Below are positions 14,295 through 63,342 of a stretch of 64,000 bases of DNA, one piece after another (position 1 is the stretch's first letter; each line of letters opens with the position of its first letter). The stretch comes from a bacterium. GTDB taxonomy: Bacteria; Zhuqueibacterota; Zhuqueibacteria; Residuimicrobiales; Krinioviventaceae. The DNA lies in NCBI GenBank assembly GCA_029561455.1, contig JAKQIY010000047.1:332-64331 (forward strand), read 5' to 3'. A model generated the notes under the pieces. That model had not been told where the DNA came from. It searched no databases and worked only from the letters and a program-made list of their open reading frames with translations. Position numbers and translations under genes: made by a program.

Positions 14295-14569
14295 GATGCT
14301 CTTTGTTTTTTAGGGGATAAGATGAGTTAATTGCTTTAATATACTAGAAATCGTTGAGCATTCAAAATTGAAAAATTCTTGTGTGGAAAAGAGGGACTGT
14401 AATGTGTAGACATGATATTGGATTGAAGAGCGCCCTGTTGCAGGTTAATTTGATAGTAGAACATGCCAATTTAGACTGTAGCATTTATATAGTCAATTAT
14501 TATAAAGAATAGCTTGTTTTTCAGCAAGGCGCACTCGGTCATTATTTTGGGTTGCGACAGGTAAAGCCC

Positions 14570-16140
14570 GGAAACAGGGTGAATCTATACGAACGCGCCG
14601 GAAAAATAATTTTTTCGTAGGGCGAAGCGAACACAGCCGTCATCTCGATACGTTCTGAAAGATGAAGCAACGGGACTACTCAATGTCTATTATGCGTTTG
14701 TCATTCCAACGAGCGCAACAAGGAGAAAACATTAAGCTCATTGCCACGTCATTTATGACGTGGATTATAAAAACTAAACAAAATTGACTTTAGTCAAATA
14801 CTTGTTTAGGCTAAAGCCCTGTTTTTCCTTTATTTGTCCCACGACCTGAAGGTCGTGGCAATGATTGGGGCTTATTCACAAACCGGTCATCGAGTAGTCC
14901 GTCCCGCTTGGCGGGACGGACGTATCGAGACGACATTTCCTGGTCAGTATGCAACAAAATGGAGCCCCCCTCGTCGCACATACGGCACAAGCCTGGACAA
15001 GTTCGGAGTCAGAGTCTTGCCTTTATAGCAGTCCTGTGCCCCAGGTGGACCGCACTGATATTCTGCCGGGCCGCAGGCCCGACCTACAGAATAAACCCCG
15101 TCAGGAGTGTAATGCTATACGAACGCATCGGAAAAACAATTTTTTCGTGGGGCGAAGCGAACACAACCGTCATCTCGATACGTTCTGAAAGATGAAGCAA
15201 CGGGACTACTCAATGACTATTATGCGTTTGTCATTCCAACGAGCGCAACAAGGAGAAAACATTAAGCTCATTGCCACGTCATTTATGACGTGGATTATAA
15301 AAACTAAACAAAATTGACTTTAGTCAAATACTTGTTTAGGCTAAAGTCCTGTTTTTCCTTTATTTGTCCCACGATCTGAAGGTCGTGGCAATGATAGGGG
15401 CTTATTCACAAACCAGTCGTCGAGTAGTTCGTCCCGCTTGGCGGGACGGACGTATCGAGACGACATTTCCTGGTCAGTATGCAATAAAGTGTAGCCCACC
15501 TCGTCGCACATACTGCAAAAGTTTGATCAGGTTCGAATTCCTAGAATTTTCTTTATAGCAGACTCGTACCCCAGGTGGACCACACTGATATTCTGCCGGG
15601 CCGCAGGCCCGACCTACAGAATATACCCCGTCAGGGGTGTAATGCTATACGAACGCGCCGGAAAAATAATTTTTTCGTAGGGCGAAACGAACATAACCGT
15701 CATCTCGATACGTCCCGAAAGATAAAGCAACGGGACTACTCGATGACCATTATGCGCTTGTCATTCCAACGAGCGCAACAAGGAGAAAACATTAAGTTCA
15801 TTGCCACGTCATTTATGACGTGGATTATAAAAACTAAACAAAATTGACTTTAGTCAAATACTTGTTTAGGCTAAAGCCCTGTTTTTCCTTTATTTGTCCC
15901 ACGACCTGAAGGTCGTGGCAATGATAGGGGCTTATTCACAAACCGGTCGTCGAGTAGTCCATCCCGCTTGGCGGGACGGACGTATCGAGACGACATTTCC
16001 TGGTCAGTATGCAACAAAGTGGAGCCCCCCTCGTCGCACATCCAGCACAAGCCCGGTCAGGTTCGGAGTCATAGGGTTGTCTTTATGGCAGACTCATGCC
16101 CCAGGTGGACCACACTGAAACCTGCTGAGCTGCAAAACCG
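14570..16140. repeat. Tandem array of three 530-bp direct repeats (noncoding, highly structured)
   Basis: The marker 'ctatacgaacgc' recurs at 14585, 15115 and 15645. Identical spacing of 530 bp is seen between the artefactual ORFs at 14834, 15364 and 15894. Units are about 90-95% identical and each contains several perfect hairpins. Confidence 0.9.
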
Positions 16141-16197
16141 GCTAAAGCCGGGACTACAAACATGGCCGAAAGATGATGTTTACAATCCGAATAATGC

Positions 16198-31411: not shown

Positions 31412-32062
31412 ATGATGATTAGACAAAACCCCAAAGTCAGTCTCAAGTATAAATATAAAAAGAATATGGAACTTGGACTGATAATCACCCTGTTTTTATT
31501 GATTCTGATTTTTCAGGGCTGGAAAAAGTTTGAAAGTGAAACCAAAAAGCAGGAGCGGGTTAATATTACTATAGAAGTACAGGAAATCCCGCAAACTGAG
31601 CAGGAAAAAAAGCCGCCAGCCCCTACACGTCCGGCTATACCGATTGAAAGCGAAAGCGATGATATCGATGAAGATGAAACAATCGAGACCACAGAAATAA
31701 ACCTGGACGAGTTGCCGACTCCTCCTCCACCCCCGGAAGAAGACGTCGATGATGAATCTGCAATCTTTGTAGCTTATGATGAAGCCCCGGAACCCATTGG
31801 TGGATTTGCGGCTATCCAGCGTAATCTGGTTTATCCTGAAATTGCCCGCAAAGCCGGCGTTGAAGGTAAAGTGGTTGTTAACTGCCTCGTAGATGAAAAA
31901 GGTAATGTTGTTAAAACTACTATTTTGAAATCTCTGGGCAATAACGGTTGTGATGAAGCGGCTGTTGCTGCGATCAAATCCGTTAAATGGAAACCCGCCA
32001 AACAACGCGATAAATCGGTTAAAGTTTGGATCGGTATTCCTGTGGTATTCAAGTTGAAGTAA
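31412..32062 (+). CDS. tonB: TonB energy transducer (Pro-rich linker, TonB_C domain)
   Basis: An N-terminal TM segment is followed by 'PTPPPPPEE' and a C-terminal 'GVEGKVVVNCLVDEKGNV'. Confidence 0.7.
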   Translation: MMIRQNPKVSLKYKYKKNMELGLIITLFLLILIFQGWKKFESETKKQERVNITIEVQEIPQTEQEKKPPAPTRPAIPIESESDDIDEDETIETTEINLDELPTPPPPPEEDVDDESAIFVAYDEAPEPIGGFAAIQRNLVYPEIARKAGVEGKVVVNCLVDEKGNVVKTTILKSLGNNGCDEAAVAAIKSVKWKPAKQRDKSVKVWIGIPVVFKLK

Positions 32063-32173
32063 GCAGTATTACTTAAAAAAACGAATTTCAATATTTTTTA
32101 TTGATTGGATAAAAGTTCGTTTTAAGACTACTGGAATATATGATATAGTGTTTATTAGTAATAGCAGTAATTA

Positions 32174-32204
32174 GAGAGCCGGTTTTAAAACCGGCTCTTT
32201 TGTC
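32174..32204 (+). terminator. Rho-independent terminator after tonB copy 1
   Basis: Hairpin 'gagagccggtttt-aa-aaccggctct' followed by 'tttgt'. Confidence 0.6.
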
Positions 32205-32360
32205 AGTCCCTTTTAACGAGTAATCATGCGGACTGATAGCCAGGTAAAAGTGGAACACAATTTAATAGTAATCCATATAGAAACAAGGCAGATTAAGAAG
32301 CACTATTAAATATCTATATTCAACATTCAACAAGAATCTCTTTTGCGGGAGGGCACTACC

Positions 32361-33008
32361 ATGAGAAAGAAACAAATCTCCACTGTCAGTCTCAAGAATA
32401 AATATAGCAAAAATATTGAACTTGGACTGTTGTTAACTTTGTTTTTGTTAATTGTAGTATTTCAGGGGTGGAAAAGGTTTGATACCGTAGTTAAAGAACA
32501 GCCGCCTGTAAAATTTACTTTTACAGTAACAGATGTATTACAAACCGAACAGAAAAGAACCCTGCCTGCGCCAAGTCGTCCATCTATCCCAATCGAGAGC
32601 GAAAATGAAGATATTGATGATGATGAAACTATTGAATCTTCAGAAATTAATATTACCGATATATTAACTCCTCCTCCGCCCCCGGCTGATGATGTTACCG
32701 AGTCAGTTCCTTTTATATCTTTTGATGAACCTCCGATGCCAATAGGCGGTTATGCTGCATTCCAGCGAAATTTAATTTACCCGGAAATTGCCCGCAAAGC
32801 CGGAGTTGAAGGTAAAGTTTATGTAAACTGCCTTATTGATGAAAAAGGTAACGTTGTTCAAACAGTTATTATAAAATCTTTGGGCAATAATGGATGCGAT
32901 GAAGCGGCTATTGCTGCGATCAAATCCGTCAAGTGGATCCCGGCCAAACAGCGTGATAAAGCGGTCAAAGTATGGATTAGCATCCCTGTGGCATTTAAAC
33001 TGAAATAA
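32361..33008 (+). CDS. tonB: TonB paralog 2
   Basis: The ATG at 32361 follows a 'gggaggg' ribosome-binding site. The architecture matches the upstream copy, with 'PPPPPADD' and 'GVEGKVYVNCLIDEKGNV'. Confidence 0.7.
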   Translation: MRKKQISTVSLKNKYSKNIELGLLLTLFLLIVVFQGWKRFDTVVKEQPPVKFTFTVTDVLQTEQKRTLPAPSRPSIPIESENEDIDDDETIESSEINITDILTPPPPPADDVTESVPFISFDEPPMPIGGYAAFQRNLIYPEIARKAGVEGKVYVNCLIDEKGNVVQTVIIKSLGNNGCDEAAIAAIKSVKWIPAKQRDKAVKVWISIPVAFKLK

Positions 33009-37570: not shown

Positions 37571-38347
37571 CTACGCTATAACAATAGTGCGCGCAGGTTG
37601 TTTTTCCTTGCCGACGCCCAGTTTGGTTTCCAGGCAGTTGATCACAATCAGAGCCGCAGACTGGGGCGTGAGATGCTGCATATTCAACACCAGGTCGTAA
37701 GCCGTGTGATCATTAGCGCTGCGGTGAAAATAGCGCTGCACAAAGGCAAAGCGGTTACTGTCGACCAGCGACACCACTTTTTTAGCTTCTTTTACCGGCA
37801 GTTCCCGCGCATGGGCAATCTTTTCCACCCGGTAGTCCAGCGGCGCGGTGATCATAATGCGTAACGAATGTTTGGGGTCGACAATAAAATTGGCGCCCCT
37901 GCCGATGATGATCGCCCGGCCTTGTTCGGCAATGGCCTCGATCACGGCATGCAGGAGGTGAAAATATTTGTCGATACCGAGAGCGTCTTTATCCAGCATG
38001 GTTTGCAAAAAGTTGTGCGTCTGGTTTTGTTTACGCTCGTCAAACGGCGCGACGATGCGGTTGCGAAGCTGGCCCGATTGGGCAATATATTCGACAAGCT
38101 CTTTATCATAGATCTGCCAATGTAACATTTCCGCTATTTTTTCCGCCACATCATCCCCGCCGGCGCCATGCGTCCGCGAAATGGTAATAATCGCGTGGTC
38201 AAGGGAATCGGCGCCGCCGGCCTTTTGCTGCCGTTTTTGAATTTGTTGTTTCACTTCCCAAATAGCAACCTGGCCTTTGATCAGCCGGTTCCAGTTGAGT
38301 TGTTCATTATGGTTAGCAGGCATGGCAACCTCCTCTGTTTGGTTCAT
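37571..38347 (-). CDS. Cytidylate-kinase-like family (AAA/P-loop) protein
   Basis: 'ITISRTHGAGGDDVAEKIAEML' is a degenerate P-loop of the Cytidylate_kin2 type. Confidence 0.5.
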   Translation of the reverse strand: MNQTEEVAMPANHNEQLNWNRLIKGQVAIWEVKQQIQKRQQKAGGADSLDHAIITISRTHGAGGDDVAEKIAEMLHWQIYDKELVEYIAQSGQLRNRIVAPFDERKQNQTHNFLQTMLDKDALGIDKYFHLLHAVIEAIAEQGRAIIIGRGANFIVDPKHSLRIMITAPLDYRVEKIAHARELPVKEAKKVVSLVDSNRFAFVQRYFHRSANDHTAYDLVLNMQHLTPQSAALIVINCLETKLGVGKEKQPARTIVIA

Positions 38348-38559: not shown

Positions 38560-39200
38560 AATTTACCGTATGAAAACAAGACGATCTTATATTCCCGGCT
38601 GGGTGCCCCGGAACCAGGGTGAATCCCTATGAATGAGCTGGAAAAACAATTTTTGTAGGGGCGAAGCATCTGTTCCGGACTTACTTTTCATGTCAACTGA
38701 TCCCGGTAAAGATGCTTCGCCCGGATGAATAACAATCCCGGTCCGCATTAAAGTCTATCCCACCTCTCCGCAAATACAGCATAAACCCGGACAGGTTCGG
38801 TGTCAAAGTGCTTTCTTTATAGAAACCCTGTGCCCCAGGTGGACTCCACTGAAATGCTGCCGGGCCGCTTTTCGCTCATCTCGTTACGTCCCGGAAGGTA
38901 AAGCAAAGGGACTAGTCGATGACCGTAATATATTTTAGAAAAACCGGTCGTCGAGTAGGGCCGTACATGGTCTTGAGTGACGAACTACACCAGGTATATA
39001 GCAGCATTACAGCAGATGCAGATTCGGCCCGTATCGAGACGACATTTTCTGACCCGAGTACATTAAAGTCTAGCCCACCTCGCCGCAAATACAACACAAG
39101 CATGGACAAGTTCGAAGTCATAGTACCTTCTTTATAGCAATCTTGTACCCCAGGTGGACAAAACTGAAATGGTGCCGGATCGCAGAGCAGAACGGCCAAG
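38560..39200. repeat. Two degenerate copies of the 14.6-kb repeat family (dispersed copy)
   Basis: The blocks '...cctc(g/t)ccgcaaatac...ggacaggttcgg...ctttatag(a/c)a...ccccaggtggac...cactgaaatg(c/g)tgccgg' are shared with the units at 14.57-16.14 kb. A perfect 13-bp hairpin 'gggcgaagcatct...agatgcttcgccc' is present. Confidence 0.75.
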
Positions 39201-39326: not shown

Positions 39327-40757
39327 ATGGAAAGAAAGAAAAAACGGCTGGCTAATGTTCCTGAGGATTTGCAGGACTATAAAAGCAAAGCCAAACTGTG
39401 GTTCGGCGGCCTGTTTGCGCCGGATCGTGAAATATATATTGCCAGGGCGCCGGCCCGCCTGGATGTGATGGGCGGTATTGCCGATTACTGCGGTGCAGTA
39501 GCGCTGCAGGGTGTTTTAAAGCAAGCCGCTGTGGTAGGCATACAGCTGCGCCGCGACCGCCGCTTGCTGGTCAAATCCGTTGGCATCGAAAATGACGGCT
39601 TTCGCTCGATTGCCGATTATGACCTTGACCGGTTTTATGACACTGGCGCGGTGAAATCTTTTGCAAACATTCGCCAGGATTTACTCAAAGACCCCTCGAC
39701 CCTGTGGATGGCATACGTACTCGGCGCATACCCGGTACTGCTGCATGAAAAAATTGCCGGACAATTCGGCAACGGCGCGACGATTTGTATTAAAAGCAAC
39801 ATACCGGTACAAGCCGGTCTCGGCGCTTCTTCCGCCCTGGTTATGGCTACTCTATTGGCCATGAAACAGGCGTATAGCCTGGCGCCGGATGCATTTCAAC
39901 TGGCAAAATGCTGCCAGCAAGTGGAGCAGCAAATAATCGGCGTTCCCGGCGGTATTGTTGCGCCGCTCACTTCGGCTATGGGCAAAAACGGCAAGCTGCT
40001 GGTCATTCGCTGCCAGCCCCATGAATTATTGAAAATGATCACGTTACCGGCGGATATTCAGTTTATCGGCATCAACTCCCGCATCAAACCTGCGAATGAT
40101 CATAACCATTATATCGATTCCCGTACGGCTGCACTTTTAGGTAGAAAAATACTTATTGCCCGGTTGCAGGAACAGGGAGTCGCCAATCCTTTTAACGGGT
40201 ATCTTTGCAACCTGGCGGCGGAACATTGGCAGGAGCGCTATCAAAACCTGCTGCCGGAACAAATGACCGGACGCAAATTTCTGGATCAGTATGCCGGGCA
40301 CGATGATGAAATGACGGAGATCGAACTTAAAAAAACGTATCATGTACAAAATTGCGCCGCTTTCCCGGTATATGAAAATGCCCGGGTACAAAAATTCATC
40401 AAAAAGCTGGAAACCTATACGCAGACCGGCAACCGCACCATCCTGGCAGAAGCCGGAGAGTTGATGTACGAATCCCATGCCGCTTACAGCGAGCTTGTTA
40501 ACCTGGGAACCAACGAGACGGATATTCTGGTCTCGCTGGTTAAAAAACTGGGGCCGGAGAACGGGTTATATGGCGCCAGGGTATCCGGCAATGGCGGCGG
40601 CGGCACTGTTGTCGTGCTCACCGCCAAAAATAATGAAGATACGATCAGAAATATTACTTCGCAGTATTATGACCAAACCGGGTTCAAGCCGGATATTTTT
40701 ACGGAATCGTCACCCGGCGGGTTGGAACTTGGCGCCGAAACGATCAAATTTACCTAG
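39327..40757 (+). CDS. GHMP-family sugar kinase (galacto-/fucokinase-like)
   Basis: 'LDVMGGIADY' at the N-terminus, the 'GLGASSALVMATLLAM' phosphate-binding loop, and a C-terminal 'GARVSGNGGGG' are present. Confidence 0.65.
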   Translation: MERKKKRLANVPEDLQDYKSKAKLWFGGLFAPDREIYIARAPARLDVMGGIADYCGAVALQGVLKQAAVVGIQLRRDRRLLVKSVGIENDGFRSIADYDLDRFYDTGAVKSFANIRQDLLKDPSTLWMAYVLGAYPVLLHEKIAGQFGNGATICIKSNIPVQAGLGASSALVMATLLAMKQAYSLAPDAFQLAKCCQQVEQQIIGVPGGIVAPLTSAMGKNGKLLVIRCQPHELLKMITLPADIQFIGINSRIKPANDHNHYIDSRTAALLGRKILIARLQEQGVANPFNGYLCNLAAEHWQERYQNLLPEQMTGRKFLDQYAGHDDEMTEIELKKTYHVQNCAAFPVYENARVQKFIKKLETYTQTGNRTILAEAGELMYESHAAYSELVNLGTNETDILVSLVKKLGPENGLYGARVSGNGGGGTVVVLTAKNNEDTIRNITSQYYDQTGFKPDIFTESSPGGLELGAETIKFT

Positions 40758-57771: not shown

Positions 57772-60018
57772 CTAATCTTTTACACAGCGGATGGAAAAGC
57801 CAAACTTTTTATTGTTATCATAACGATAAATGATTGGTGTACCAAAATCCATTAACCGATTCCAGGCGTTTGTGCCGGAGCTTTCTGTTGCAGTCCAAAT
57901 TATTGTTCCGGATCCTAAATTGCTATAATCACCATAGTCATAACGATAGCCGGCGGGCAAGGCTGTAAATCCATATTCGTTGGTAGCGCCTTCATTGGGG
58001 AATTCCCAATGAACAGTTCCAGTTTCTTTCAGTTTTCCTCCTTCATTAGAGCCCCTGAGGTCTGTTAGATCTGCTTGTTCCCGGCTCATACCTATGGTCA
58101 TTTCCAGTTGTTTCCATTCCTCATCGCTGGGCACATGCCAGCCGGACGGTGCAATTTGTCTCCCGTCATGAACGGCAAGCCAGTTATAAAGACAACTATA
58201 GGTGGAAATATTATTGACATCATTATAGTAACAGCACCAGGCGCCGGTGGTTAGTGAGGTCCATTCTCCATTATTGGTAATATTGGGAATGACGTCACCG
58301 TTACGGTAATGCGTCACCTTGAGATTTTCCGCCATCCACCATTGCTCGCCGATCATAATCGTTTTGTAGACATTACCATCGATATCGGTCACGGTTCCGG
58401 TAATAAAAGAAATGGTTGTAAAGCTCCAGGGATCAGTCCACGCGGTAGTAGCGCCGTTGTTTGTGGCATTGACCCGCCAATAATAAGTAACTCCACCAGA
58501 TAGTCCGTTCACCTGGAAAGATGTTGTGGTTATACCCTCCTCATCTATAATCAATGTGCTAAAATCCGGTTGTGTAGAAACCTGAAGTCCATAGGTTTTC
58601 GCACCACCTGTGGCTATCCAGGTTAACATTGGAAGAACTGTTATACCCGTATCACCATTTGCCGGAGAGGATAGCGCCGGAAGGTTGGGTAAACTTCCAT
58701 TGAGGATGCAGCGTACCGAAAAGCCTTTTTGCTTTTCAAATAACCCTCTATAAACTTTGACACTATCGGAAAGTAAGATACGACTCCATGCAAAAGAGTC
58801 ACTATAGTCGCTGGCGCTCCAGAAAGAGGCTAATATTCCCAAAGGGTCAAAGGCGCCATAAAAATAGCGTGACCCGCCGGGCAATACGGTAAAGCCTGTT
58901 TCATTTGTCGCCCCTGCATTGGGGGCTTCCCAATGAGTTGTGCCGGTTTCTTTAAGTTTGCCGCCCTGGGTGGTTCCGCGCCAGTATTGGTCATCGGCCT
59001 CCTGGCGGTTCATCCCCAGGCTAATTTCAAGTTGCTTCCATTCCTCATCTGTGGGAAGATGCCAATCTAAGGGAGCAAGGTTACGGTTATCGTTAACAGC
59101 AAACCAGTTATAAAGATAGCCATAGGTAGCAACATTATTTTGTTCATCTGCGGCGGCGCACAAGGCCCCGGTAGTTAAAGAACTCCATCCCGTATCATCG
59201 GTAATGTTTGGTAATGCATCTCCATTACGATAATGGGTCACTTGCAGGTTTTCCGCCATCCACCATTGCTCGCCGATTTTTACAGTGCGGTAGACATTGC
59301 CGTCAATATCCGTTACGGTGCGGATAACGTTTATATTAAATACTTTGTTTCCCATAATCTGCACATCATGCTGCTCCCAGGTTTCAATATCCTTACTGGA
59401 AACCCGCAGCAGGTAATTGTTGGATTGGGCTTTGTACAAGCCGCTTTGTCCAGCCCCGGCGGCTGAACTGGATGCGGAAATATTGCCCAGGTGGCCATCC
59501 AGCAACAGCATTTTACGGGTGATCCTTTTTCCCTCGGTTATCATAGTATAAAGGTATACTCCCGCGGAGACGCCCCGGCCCTGGTCGTTGATTCCATTCC
59601 ATAAAATATGACCATAAAGATCGGTTTGCCAGGCATCCAGCAAAGTTTTGATCTTTTGTCCCAGCACATTATAAATTTCAATGCGCACCTGCGCGGGATG
59701 GGGTATTTCATAACTTATTACTGTTGACGGATTGAACGGATTAGGATAGTTTTGCAGCAACTGAAATGCGCCCGGCTTTTGCGCGGGCGTTTCGTCGATC
59801 CCGGTTTCGGTTATGGTGATGGAGTATTGACCCTGGGCATCGGTGATCCCATTAAAACACCTGTCGGCATTGGCTTGGTCGATCACCTCGATAAAGGCAT
59901 TCTCCACAGGCTCGGCGCCGTTATCCGTTACCACGCCCTGTAAGACAATTTGCGCATTCAGGCAGCCGGCGAGCATAAAGAGAGCAATAAATACAATAAG
60001 CAAATAACGGCGGGACAT
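57772..60018 (-). CDS. Secreted multidomain protein: CarboxypepD_reg-like + T9SS-type sorting-like domain (N-proximal) + 2x Fib_succ_major domains + FN3-like
   Basis: The signal peptide is followed by 'QGVVTDNGAEPV' and 'LLQNYPNPFNPSTVISYEIPHPAQVRIEIYNVLGQKIKTLLDA'. The two repeat modules carry 'DGNVYRTVKIGEQWWMAENL...YGYLYNW...GWHLPTDEEW...GGKLKE...GFSVRC'. Confidence 0.65.
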   Translation of the reverse strand: MSRRYLLIVFIALFMLAGCLNAQIVLQGVVTDNGAEPVENAFIEVIDQANADRCFNGITDAQGQYSITITETGIDETPAQKPGAFQLLQNYPNPFNPSTVISYEIPHPAQVRIEIYNVLGQKIKTLLDAWQTDLYGHILWNGINDQGRGVSAGVYLYTMITEGKRITRKMLLLDGHLGNISASSSAAGAGQSGLYKAQSNNYLLRVSSKDIETWEQHDVQIMGNKVFNINVIRTVTDIDGNVYRTVKIGEQWWMAENLQVTHYRNGDALPNITDDTGWSSLTTGALCAAADEQNNVATYGYLYNWFAVNDNRNLAPLDWHLPTDEEWKQLEISLGMNRQEADDQYWRGTTQGGKLKETGTTHWEAPNAGATNETGFTVLPGGSRYFYGAFDPLGILASFWSASDYSDSFAWSRILLSDSVKVYRGLFEKQKGFSVRCILNGSLPNLPALSSPANGDTGITVLPMLTWIATGGAKTYGLQVSTQPDFSTLIIDEEGITTTSFQVNGLSGGVTYYWRVNATNNGATTAWTDPWSFTTISFITGTVTDIDGNVYKTIMIGEQWWMAENLKVTHYRNGDVIPNITNNGEWTSLTTGAWCCYYNDVNNISTYSCLYNWLAVHDGRQIAPSGWHVPSDEEWKQLEMTIGMSREQADLTDLRGSNEGGKLKETGTVHWEFPNEGATNEYGFTALPAGYRYDYGDYSNLGSGTIIWTATESSGTNAWNRLMDFGTPIIYRYDNNKKFGFSIRCVKD

Positions 60019-60132
60019 GTTTCCTCCATAGCAGTTGATAATATTTTTATTTTACATTAAAACAGCTTTTATAAAATCCGCACAAGGGGCTTGTTACCCC
60101 TTGTGCAGCTGCTAAATAACATTTTTTAAATC

Positions 60133-63100
60133 TTAATCTTTTACGCAGCGGACGGAAAAGCCATATTGTTTTTTATCATCCATACGTCGAATTGTTTGAA
60201 CATCATACTTTAAGGAACGATAGTAACTTGTCAGAGTGTCCGACTCGGAACTTGTACAAGTCCAAAATAGTGCGCTTGTTCCAATCTCGGAAAAAGCTCC
60301 GGTACGCGCACTGCAATAGCCGAAAGATAAAGCAGTAAATCCCGATTCGTTTGTTGCGCCTGTATTTGGATTATTCCAATGCGTTAACCCGGTTTCTTTT
60401 AACATACCGCCTTCATTCCTACCGCGAAAACCTGAATTATCGACTTCTTCCTGCGTCATTCCCAGGTGTTTTTCCAGTATTTTCCAATCTTCATCGGTTG
60501 GTACATGCCAGCCTTCCGGGGCAATATTCCGCTCGTCGACAGTGGCAAACCAGTTATATAAACTGCCATAAGTAGCCATTAAACTGTTATCATTGTTTAA
60601 GCTACACCATGCGCCGGCTTGCGTTTCCATCCATGCCGTGCTGTCCGTAATATTGGGTATTGCTTCGCCATTGCGATAATGTGTTACTTGTAAATTTTCC
60701 TGCATCCACCACTGCTTACCGATGCGGACTGTTTTATATACATTGCCGTCAATATCTGTAACTGAACCGGTTACCGGAACCGACGATACTGTTGTAAGAC
60801 TCCAGGGTTCCGACCAGGGACTGGTTCCTTCAGTGTTCTTTGCATTAACCCGCCAGTAAAAAGTTGTCGCCGGGGTAAGGGTAAACACTTTAAAGGTGGT
60901 AGAGTCAATATTACTTTGGTTAACTATGAGTCCTGAGAAATCAGGGTTTAGAGCAACTTGCAGGCTATAAGAGAGCGCCCCATTTACTTCATGCCAACGC
61001 AGGATTGGACTTTTTGGCACATCAATTTCATTATTTTCTACTGAAATATGCACCGGCGCATTTGGAGGGGTAGAGTATTTCATTAAACGAATTGAACAAC
61101 CGCAACTGGATTGATTATTGCGATTGTTAATTTCTGACCATTCACTGATTCTTCTATGGATTGCCCGGTAGCCGCCGTCTGATGTGCTTGTCCAAAAAGT
61201 TGAAGCTTCACCTAATCCGTCAAAAGAACCATTTGAACTCCTTTGACCACCAGGCAGGGCAGTAAAACCGCTTTCATTAGTTGCATTATCGTTTGGCGCC
61301 TTCCAGTGTAAAGTACCTGTTTCTCTTAGCTTGCCGCTAACATTAAACCAAATTATCCAGGTGCTGTCTTCTTCATCAGGTCTCATGCCGAGTAATGTTT
61401 CCATTTCTTTCCATTCATTATCGGTCGGAACTTTCCAGCCTTCAGGAGCAATTCCCCGTTCATCACCCACAACATACCAATTATAAAGATGACCATAAAT
61501 GGCATTATTTACTTCTTTATTTAAATAATTGCACCAGGCGCCGCTTTGGGTATTATTGGTATCGTGCCATTCGTCATCACCGGTTAAATAAGAAATTTCA
61601 TCGCCGTTATTGTAATGAGATACTTTCAGGTTTTCTGTCATCCACCACTGATTACCGATCAACACCGTATTATAAATATTGCCGTCATAATCGGTTACCG
61701 TGCCTTTTTCATATATTGCCGTTGTAAAATTAATGTATTCGGACCAGTTACTGGTACCGTTGGGACATGAAGCATTGACACGCCAGTAATAGGTTGTTCC
61801 CTCAGATAATCCGGTTACCAGGAAGGAATTGGAAGATATATGATCTTCATTTATGAAAAGATTTGTAAAAACCGGGTTGGTGGAAACCTGCAAACCATAC
61901 CATTCCTCACCGCCCCTTGGGTGCCAGCTTAAAGTTACACTGGTGTACAACCCGGTTGTATTAGCTTCAGGAGCAAGGTTCGATGGTGTATTGGGACTGC
62001 CACCATATAGAACACAGCGTACCGAAAATCCCTTGTTGAGTTTTTCTTTTTCACGGTAAATTGCGGTTTCAGTAGAATTAAGATTCCTGTAAAAAGCATG
62101 ATCTTCATTATAAATAGCATTAGCCCAAAAAAATGCATTGGTGTTCATATCGCTATACGAACCATCTTCATTGCGGTAGCCACCGGGCAAAGCGTTGAAT
62201 CCATATTCATTGGTTGCCCCTGTATTGGGATTCGTCCAATGGGTTGTGCCGCTTTCTTTCAATTTTCCCCCCTGGTCGGTACCTCGCCAATAAGATATTC
62301 CAAGCTGTAATTCATCAATACCCAAAGTCCTTTCCAATTCCTGCCAATCCTGGTCTGTGGGCACACGCCAGCCCTCCGGGGCCAAATCGGAAGTATCATT
62401 CACAGCATACCAGTTATACAAAAGACCATAGGTTGTTATGTTATCGTCATCTTTATTATAACTGCACCGTGCTCCGGAAGTGGCTTTTTTCCACTGCAAG
62501 TCGTTCAGCATACTTTTAATAAATATGCCGTTACGGTAATGAGTTGTTTTCAGATTTTCCGCCATCCACCATTGATTACCGATTTTTACGGTACGGTATA
62601 CGTTACCGTCAAAGTCCGTTACTGTACGAATGACATTTACATTTATAACCTTGTTTTCATTGATGAGTACATCCTGCTGTTCCCAGGTTTCAATATCCGT
62701 TCCGGAGACCCGCAGCAGAAATGTGAACGATTGTGGTTTCAGCAGGCCGGGTTGACCTGCGTAAACCGGCGCGGCTGCATTGGAGGTACTTACTTCGCCA
62801 AGATGACCATCCAGCAGCAGCATCTTGCGGTTGATTCTTTGTCCCTCGCTGAACAGAGAGTAAAAATACACTCCGGCGGAAACGCCCCGGCCCTGGTCGT
62901 TTGTGCCGTCCCAAATGATCTTTCCATAAAGATTGGTTTGCTGGGCATCCAGTAAGGTTTTGATCTTTTGTCCCAATACATTATATATTTCAATGCGCAC
63001 CTGGGCAGGGTGAGGTATTTCATAGCTAATCACTGTAGAGGGATTGAATGGATTGGGATAGTTTTGTAACAGGTTAAAAGAACGGGGTTTTTGACCGGTA

Positions 63101-63342
63101 TCGCCAATACCGGTAGTACTAATGTCGATGGCATACTCTCCTTCGCTATTGGTCAGGCTGCTAAAGATTCGGCCGGCATTGGCCTGGTCGATCACTTCAA
63201 CCAGGGCATTACCCACAGGTTCATCGCCATTGTTTTTTACCACACCCTGTAACTGAATTTGTGCAAAAAGGCTTTGACCCGCAAGTAACAGGCCAAGCAC
63301 ACAAGCCAGAAAAATTTTACGGAAAAGCATAAATCCTCCCAC
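60133..63342 (-). CDS. Secreted multidomain paralog: same N-terminal module + 4x Fib_succ_major domains + FN3-like
   Basis: The N-terminal ~180 aa are near-identical to the upstream paralog, including an identical 43-aa stretch. Four modules end in 'GFSVRCV' or variants. Confidence 0.65.
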   Translation of the reverse strand: MGGFMLFRKIFLACVLGLLLAGQSLFAQIQLQGVVKNNGDEPVGNALVEVIDQANAGRIFSSLTNSEGEYAIDISTTGIGDTGQKPRSFNLLQNYPNPFNPSTVISYEIPHPAQVRIEIYNVLGQKIKTLLDAQQTNLYGKIIWDGTNDQGRGVSAGVYFYSLFSEGQRINRKMLLLDGHLGEVSTSNAAAPVYAGQPGLLKPQSFTFLLRVSGTDIETWEQQDVLINENKVINVNVIRTVTDFDGNVYRTVKIGNQWWMAENLKTTHYRNGIFIKSMLNDLQWKKATSGARCSYNKDDDNITTYGLLYNWYAVNDTSDLAPEGWRVPTDQDWQELERTLGIDELQLGISYWRGTDQGGKLKESGTTHWTNPNTGATNEYGFNALPGGYRNEDGSYSDMNTNAFFWANAIYNEDHAFYRNLNSTETAIYREKEKLNKGFSVRCVLYGGSPNTPSNLAPEANTTGLYTSVTLSWHPRGGEEWYGLQVSTNPVFTNLFINEDHISSNSFLVTGLSEGTTYYWRVNASCPNGTSNWSEYINFTTAIYEKGTVTDYDGNIYNTVLIGNQWWMTENLKVSHYNNGDEISYLTGDDEWHDTNNTQSGAWCNYLNKEVNNAIYGHLYNWYVVGDERGIAPEGWKVPTDNEWKEMETLLGMRPDEEDSTWIIWFNVSGKLRETGTLHWKAPNDNATNESGFTALPGGQRSSNGSFDGLGEASTFWTSTSDGGYRAIHRRISEWSEINNRNNQSSCGCSIRLMKYSTPPNAPVHISVENNEIDVPKSPILRWHEVNGALSYSLQVALNPDFSGLIVNQSNIDSTTFKVFTLTPATTFYWRVNAKNTEGTSPWSEPWSLTTVSSVPVTGSVTDIDGNVYKTVRIGKQWWMQENLQVTHYRNGEAIPNITDSTAWMETQAGAWCSLNNDNSLMATYGSLYNWFATVDERNIAPEGWHVPTDEDWKILEKHLGMTQEEVDNSGFRGRNEGGMLKETGLTHWNNPNTGATNESGFTALSFGYCSARTGAFSEIGTSALFWTCTSSESDTLTSYYRSLKYDVQTIRRMDDKKQYGFSVRCVKD

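Follow-up and report, generated by a model that had tools for sequence, protein, structure and literature searches.

The region around 38.6–39.2 kb of the window, by which we mean the whole 64-kb stretch of DNA analysed here, raises the question of what kind of element can sit in two divergent units in one intergenic gap and as a tandem array 22 kb away. The original prediction had left it between a functional RNA and a structured mobile repeat, with a recent duplication as the less favoured option. Our analysis describes the region as a BIME-like cluster whose mosaic repeats are of REP type and most likely selfish palindromic DNA, probably spread and shuffled by a RAYT transposase. Most likely it represents a new sequence family of REP/BIME/REPIN-type repeats, carried by a relative of candidate division KSB1.

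A repeat search of the window returned a 156-nt segment in five copies, with spacings of 530, 530, 22,734 and 315 nt and identities of 65–85%. An HMM of the ~105-nt core of the repeat gave exactly five matches in the 64 kb, all on the + strand (E 3e-31 to 7e-28) and all intergenic: three in a tandem array at 14,566–16,157 (array 1) and two at 38,750–38,856 and 39,065–39,171, within a cluster of two units spanning 38,606–39,196. The array had been missed by TRF only because its 530-bp period exceeds that program's period limit of 500 bp. The ordered sequence blocks said to be common to the 315-bp units and the array are present, as CCCCAGGTGGAC occurs five times in the window (0.15 expected) and CCTCKCCGCAAATAC is exact at 38763 and 39078 and has 2 mismatches in two array units. 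The copies at 38.6–39.2 kb are the most divergent in the window (65–78% identical to the reference copy). Their intergenic position was correctly predicted, but the neighbours are divergently rather than convergently transcribed, with a cytidylate-kinase-like gene on the left (37571–38347, − strand) and a GHMP kinase gene on the right (39327–40757, + strand). Repetition occurs within genes of the window as well: the Fibrobacter succinogenes major paralogous domain is encoded five times across two large genes at 57772–63342 (− strand), which accounts for direct-repeat families with ~924-bp spacing, and two adjacent TonB C-terminal domain paralogs at 31412–33008 (+ strand) are ~80% identical over 300 nt.

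The cluster opens with a leader (38606–38625, + strand; recognised by nhmmer leader matches and by sequence), in which TGAATC comes after the small hairpin CCCCGGAACCAGGG; array 1 (at 14566) and one array in the related contig L008 open with this motif too. It is followed by a REP-like tagged hairpin (38655–38722, + strand), in which a GTAG tag (38655–38658) stands directly 5' of a perfect 13-bp stem (38659–38671 paired with 38710–38722, 38-nt loop). This hairpin, also found in L020, folds with z-scores of −5.1 and −5.3 against shuffles, one per strand. The stem itself is thus real, but the array copies, which had been thought to carry a diverged version of it, retain the 5' arm (GGGCGAAGCGAACAC) alone, with nothing complementary to it on the 3' side, so the argument that the sequence diverged while the hairpin was retained fails for this stem. 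Next comes the first core copy, V1 (~105 nt, 38750–38856, + strand; core HMM E 7e-28, and alignments), bounded by the terminal imperfect inverted repeat AGTCTATCCCACCT...AGGTGGACTCCACT, and then a half REP-a (CTGCCGGGCCGC; 38857–38869, + strand) that is cut off at the start of the following module. This same junction is seen in L022, L027 and L059.

The following module, which we call H (38874–39043, + strand), is a three-way hairpin corresponding to a tail-to-tail, REPIN-like REP doublet (z −2.3 on both strands). In its outer stem 38874–38892 pairs with 39027–39043, and in its inner stem GGGACTAGTCGATGACCG pairs with CGGTCGTCGAGTAGGGCC; the tags are a GTAG at 38955, beside a GGCCG...CGGCC stem, and a degenerate partner, CTAG, at 38912. 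The inverted segment cgtatcgagacgac / gagtag that had been noticed here is genuine and forms part of this three-way hairpin. The second core copy, V2 (39065–39171, + strand; core HMM E 4.9e-28, and synteny), can be aligned to the one core that the related contig L052 has at the orthologous position, and a degenerate REP-a remnant (39172–39196, + strand) makes up the right end of the cluster. Both cores of the cluster have mutated tags, CTAT (V1) and CTAG instead of GTAG.

Array 1 (14566–16157, + strand) consists of a leader and then three units of 530 bp, each made of a module H with an insert of ~130 nt, followed by a core. The three cores (U1 14956–15062, U2 15486–15592, U3 16016–16122, + strand) match the core HMM at E 3e-29 to 3e-31. 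Units 1 and 2 are closed by REP-a (15065–15087 and 15595–15617, − strand), the palindrome GCCGGGCCGCAGGCCCGACCTAC, which reads GTAGGTCGGGCCTGCGGCCCGGC on the − strand and has a DNA fold z-score of −4.0 on the strand that carries GTAG. The third core is followed instead by REP-d (16134–16157, − strand), a GTAG-tagged hairpin reading GTAGTCCCGGCTTTAGCCGG and then TTTT on the − strand. REP-d lies 41 nt past the stop codon of xth, is kept in 91% relatives and may serve as the xth terminator; its T-run is below the threshold of the terminator scan. The insert (14738–14865, 15268–15395 and 15798–15925, i.e. +530 and +1060; + strand) occupies the loop of module H. It has the look of a miniature transposable element nested within a REP doublet: its ends are 12-nt inverted repeats (CATTGCCACGTC...GTCGTGGCAATG), and it contains a central hairpin besides two subterminal ones. 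It also occurs in L002, L005, L025, L044 and L048, always in the same orientation and in the loop of module H.

Taken over all copies, the repeat is a mosaic of modules: a leader or junction hairpin with TGAAT, module H, the insert (array 1), the core and the terminal palindrome GCCGGGCCGCAGGCCCGACCTAC. Most hairpin modules carry GTAG (CTAC if inverted) at the foot of a GC-rich stem, and the tagged set comprises REP-a, REP-b, REP-c, REP-d and the 13-bp hairpin (GTAG at 38655). GTAG/CTAC is no more frequent in the arrays than chance would give (12 in 1.6 kb), and only its position at hairpin feet is suggestive. Short, GC-rich imperfect palindromes with a terminal GTAG, by which REPs are defined, are found in REP-a, the 13-bp stem hairpin, module H and REP-d, and two inverted REPs folding into one hairpin, the definition of a REPIN, are found in module H. 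The two halves of module H read ...GGGACTAC TCGATGACC-loop-GGTCGTCGA and a GTAGGCC hairpin; the module has a side hairpin and two 17-bp stems, of which the inner carries CTAC...GTAG. The core consensus, AAAGTGTAGCCCACCT...AGGTGGACCACACT, has GTAG at its start, although some copies carry it in mutated form, and ends in an imperfect inverted repeat of 14 nt whose stem carries two A.C mismatches on the + strand.

Related contigs show further modules and arrangements. Untagged short hairpins (GCGCCGGGATTCACATCCCGGCGC, CCAGGGTTTCTTGCCCTGG and ACAAGGGGCTTTTGCCCCTTGT) recur beside cores of several genomes, in L013, L024, L047, L052 and L059. Another repeat of ~130 nt (…GGGACGGCGAGTTCAAATCCGG…AAAACCCCATCCTACnCCCTA) is joined to cores at L025 2215–2344 and L026 3212–3340, where it meets cores cut off at two different positions, as if inserted or recombined. 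At L044 6886–8385, five H-plus-insert units with a 328-bp period and without cores precede one core, an arrangement from which it follows that the modules amplify independently.

The family is not confined to the window. When metagenomes were scanned for a core pattern of 17 bases, ~35 true copies came from several assemblies, along with ~20 chance matches, and nhmmer raised the core matches to 49; about 47 cores lie on contigs from several related genomes. Since the loci were picked with the core pattern, the 47 cores and 30 REP-a copies found in 258 kb of related loci are to be read as counts within a selected set. The sole match in the genome collection comes from an uncultured 'Cytophagia' MAG, right at the end of one of its contigs, and a scan of viral contigs returned zero copies of the repeat. 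The best named homologs of the flanking proteins come from candidate division KSB1 (57–69% identity). Related arrays are mostly in a single orientation, vary in period (266–1300 bp) and composition, and include 5'-truncated cores, recombined copies and arrays in which H units stand without cores. Composition varies as a mosaic in the module maps drawn for 29 arrays, and at sites shared with the window L052 and L059–L062 have another module order. With respect to the upstream gene, arrays are on the same strand in 13 cases and on the opposite strand in 7; with respect to the downstream gene, the counts are 10 same and 12 opposite. Many arrays lie 18–60 nt from a stop codon, and they are often next to gene 3' ends.

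Two sites could be compared between relatives. At the GHMP-kinase site, the collinearity of L052 (~90% nucleotide identity) with the window breaks off at 38,598 and resumes at 39,055, with other interior modules and a single core in between; a 77% relative (L053) is collinear only from 39,229. No array is present at this site in a KSB1 genome or in relatives whose GHMP kinase orthologs are 79% and 57% identical. Since its boundaries are the same in the ~90% relative, the array at this site is old. At the xth site, four contigs encode one identical Xth protein (94% identical to that of the window), and in all four the array opens with the same REP-d, continues with a different module order and is still running when the contig ends; one of the four departs from the others 250 nt from the stop codon. 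Contigs of an 83% relative end 100–125 nt past the xth stop, and a KSB1 relative has no array there. Across the compared sites, arrays are absent from the 77–78% relatives and the KSB1 relatives. The 429-nt core-H-core unit of the 38.6–39.2 kb cluster recurs at 84% identity at a relative's xth site. Array content differs even between near-identical strains, and arrays at fixed intergenic sites remodel rapidly. Contigs of independent relative assemblies end inside or beside arrays in L001, L053 and L059–L065; so many contig ends in arrays make the repeat family a systematic cause of assembly breaks in this lineage.

The link to a transposase comes from two of the related contigs, L027 and L056, which cannot be assigned to the genome of the window; in the 64-kb window itself, tblastn found no RAYT gene. 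The protein encoded at L027 4967–5521 scores 180.8 bits on the NCBIfam equivalog model NF047646, 'REP-associated tyrosine transposase' (cut-off 80), against only 20 bits on an IS200 model (cut-off 55), and matches E. coli TnpA-REP (PDB 4ER8) at E 3e-32 over 169 residues. Its gene is flanked by inverted copies of REP-a, GTAGGTCGGGCCTGTGGTCCGGC upstream and GCCGGGCCGCAGGCCCGACCTAC downstream, and on the unrelated contig L056 a RAYT 80% identical to it has the same inverted REP-a flanks. The REP-a of the window is identical in sequence to the REPs flanking both genes. RAYTs of two KSB1 genomes are flanked by different GTAG palindromes of their own, and a RAYT gene between inverted copies of its REP is the arrangement known from the REP/RAYT literature (PMC3116915, PMC3333891). 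Judged by sequence and gene arrangement, the terminal palindrome REP-a is the putative cognate REP of the RAYT transposase on these contigs. REP-a stands directly after 21 of the 47 cores and is missing from the other 26, an association that is biased by the choice of loci with the core pattern. The neighbourhoods of the two genes also hold an ORF from 5637 whose product has a P-loop-like motif (GVWGSGKT) in L027, and a gene for a RES-domain protein at 609–1763 in L056.

We infer a RAYT-based mechanism because of this conserved arrangement and the published biochemistry of TnpA-REP (PMC3333891, PMC3479197). By analogy to the E. coli enzyme, the RAYT, a HUH/Y1 tyrosine transposase, would bind the tagged hairpins and cut and rejoin beside them, and would generate, spread and shuffle the family on single-stranded DNA. 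The arrays would subsequently grow and become homogeneous through unequal recombination and gene conversion. Consequences for the host would be secondary: lying near gene 3' ends, the hairpins could stabilise or end transcripts. To our knowledge, RAYT-driven mobility has not been directly demonstrated even for model REPs.

Less easily fitted to a REP is the core, which at 105 nt is far longer than a classical REP and in which some blocks are invariant across genomes and neighbouring ones freely variable; within one array it also differs about ten times as much as its flanks. It is conceivable, though unlikely, that the core has a function of its own, as a protein-binding site or as a small RNA, and is a payload which the REP/RAYT machinery copies around; the repeat would then be a REPIN-like element carrying selected cargo.

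Several IS families insert preferentially into REP sequences, and the core and the 130-nt insert might accordingly be MITEs of another transposon with this preference, so that their association with RAYT would be indirect. In seven different sequence contexts the core begins and ends sharply, and an imperfect inverted repeat of 14 nt forms its termini; the insert has its own 12-nt terminal inverted repeats and subterminal hairpins, and 26 of 47 cores are found without REP-a, all of which would suit such elements. However, core boundaries show no recognisable target-site duplication, no transposase other than RAYT is encoded beside any copy (36 flanking proteins, read by eye), and the core is always co-oriented with the REP modules; we therefore hold the MITE reading to be quite unlikely.

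The functional RNA of the original prediction would mean that the arrays encode a structured non-coding RNA in repeated form, with the core and hairpins as its domains and with a promoter upstream of the leader. Single-orientation arrays with a conserved leader at their start agree with this, as do the alternation of invariant and variable core blocks and the folding of the − strand, on which the terminal stem of the core forms 9 continuous pairs including two G.U, and RNAalifold gives −28.8 kcal/mol (− strand) versus −14.7. This terminal stem, an invariant CCACCT/AGGTGG, is the only solid helix of the core. Against the reading, among 40 distinct cores no helix has compensatory double changes, the terminal stem being invariant or changed on one side only; the top column pairs by mutual information are not Watson-Crick and reflect subfamilies, and no consistent helix joins the variable core blocks on either strand. 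Against shuffled sequences the cores show no gain in folding, but the tagged hairpins do. As a test of strand, the asymmetry of G.T versus A.C favours the − strand in the core stem and is mixed in module H. Rfam has no match at the gathering threshold anywhere in the window, nor at the E-value threshold; the best sub-threshold matches reach 31 bits against a cut-off of 60, among them the weak resemblance of the insert to psRNA14. The core contains a T-loop-like GGTTCGAAT, but a search for tRNA and tmRNA genes found none. Promoters, terminators and gene orientation show no consistency (sigma-70 and terminator scans were uninformative), and 5'-truncated and recombined copies are common. Arrays as RNA genes are therefore improbable, and it is the mobile-repeat half of the original prediction that stands, on the tagged hairpins, the RAYT-cognate REP, the dispersal and the array turnover.

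If part of the tandem array had simply been duplicated as a segment and were now decaying, with no mechanism of mobility, this could account for the copies at 38.6–39.2 kb being the most divergent in the window, with degenerate tags and REP-a. This duplication reading is contradicted by the presence of the family at dozens of unrelated loci in several genomes, and the array, old as judged by the ~90% relative with the same boundaries, still has its invariant blocks intact. Nor is the divergence that of uniform decay. Between the units of array 1 the cores are 78–83% identical, compared with 98–99% for the insert and 95–98% for the 3' half of H, a gap that uniform drift or decay after duplication does not explain. 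The unit 2 core carries variable-block states of another subfamily, found in other genomes, despite sharing with the other two cores the array-specific CGTCGCAC, a pattern that points to patchwise exchange. We regard simple duplication as very improbable. Least credible of all is a cis-regulatory leader (a tandem riboswitch or attenuator) of the GHMP kinase or cytidylate-kinase-like gene, which the position between divergent genes, in a possible 5' UTR of either, would allow but which is contradicted by the orientation statistics, by other copies lying after gene 3' ends or between convergent genes, by promoter-like sites of both neighbours lying between the array and each gene, and by the lack of an array in the relatives with 79%- and 57%-identical GHMP kinase orthologs.

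Further candidates were tried and rejected. For an IS200/IS605-derived element, the sole Y1 protein near copies is the one with 20 bits on the IS200 model (cut-off 55) versus 180.8 on the RAYT model; for a CRISPR array, whole 530-bp units repeat at 78–99% identity and there are no unique spacers; and for a diversity-generating retroelement, the substitutions between units are not adenine-specific. Omega-RNA (TnpB/IscB), IS110 bridge RNA, retron RNA, group II intron remnants, integron attC arrays and hammerhead-type ribozymes were set aside for a misfitting pattern or because no gene for such a protein turned up among the flanking ORFs inspected. Searching for the conserved motifs in the full texts of papers found nothing relevant.

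The reading we prefer, a REP-type family mobilised by RAYT, would extend RAYT-associated REP/BIME systems to an uncultured lineage near candidate division KSB1, in an unusually large modular version with three-way hairpins, a 105-nt conserved core and 530-bp tandem units. It opens no new mechanism and describes a fairly ordinary feature of a poorly studied lineage. In practical terms, the arrays account for the breaks that assemblies of this lineage have at particular intergenic sites, and they could be used as fast-evolving strain markers.

Among known systems, the pneumococcal BOX (A-Bn-C) and the neisserial NIMEs are likewise modular mosaics with a variable number of internal modules and variation between strains, although we know of no link of either to RAYT or GTAG tags. 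The GTAG-REP super-family (Di Nocera et al, 2013; PMC3733652) is closer, as it shares the GTAG tag, the dimers, the large clusters and the downstream preference. Its tagged REPs form head-head, tail-tail and head-tail dimers, its clusters are dimers tandemly reiterated with flanking DNA, and these lie mostly downstream of coding regions (PMC3733652). The present family was set apart from the 24 families of that study by the descriptions given in its text. The REPINs of Pseudomonas fluorescens (Bertels and Rainey, 2011; PMC3116915) resemble module H in being RAYT-associated inverted REP doublets that form one long hairpin; they differ in that the doublet here is tail-to-tail, has extra side hairpins, often holds a 130-nt insert in its loop and travels with a non-palindromic core. 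The E. coli REP/BIME system with TnpA-REP (PDB 4ER8; PMC3333891, PMC3479197) shares GTAG-tagged, GC-rich imperfect palindromes, extragenic mosaic clusters with non-palindromic linker motifs, and a RAYT gene flanked by inverted copies of its REP. Compared with it, the units described here are far larger (a 105-nt core, three-way hairpins of 170–300 nt and periods of 530 bp), several distinct types of tagged hairpin coexist, and the host is an uncultured relative of KSB1.
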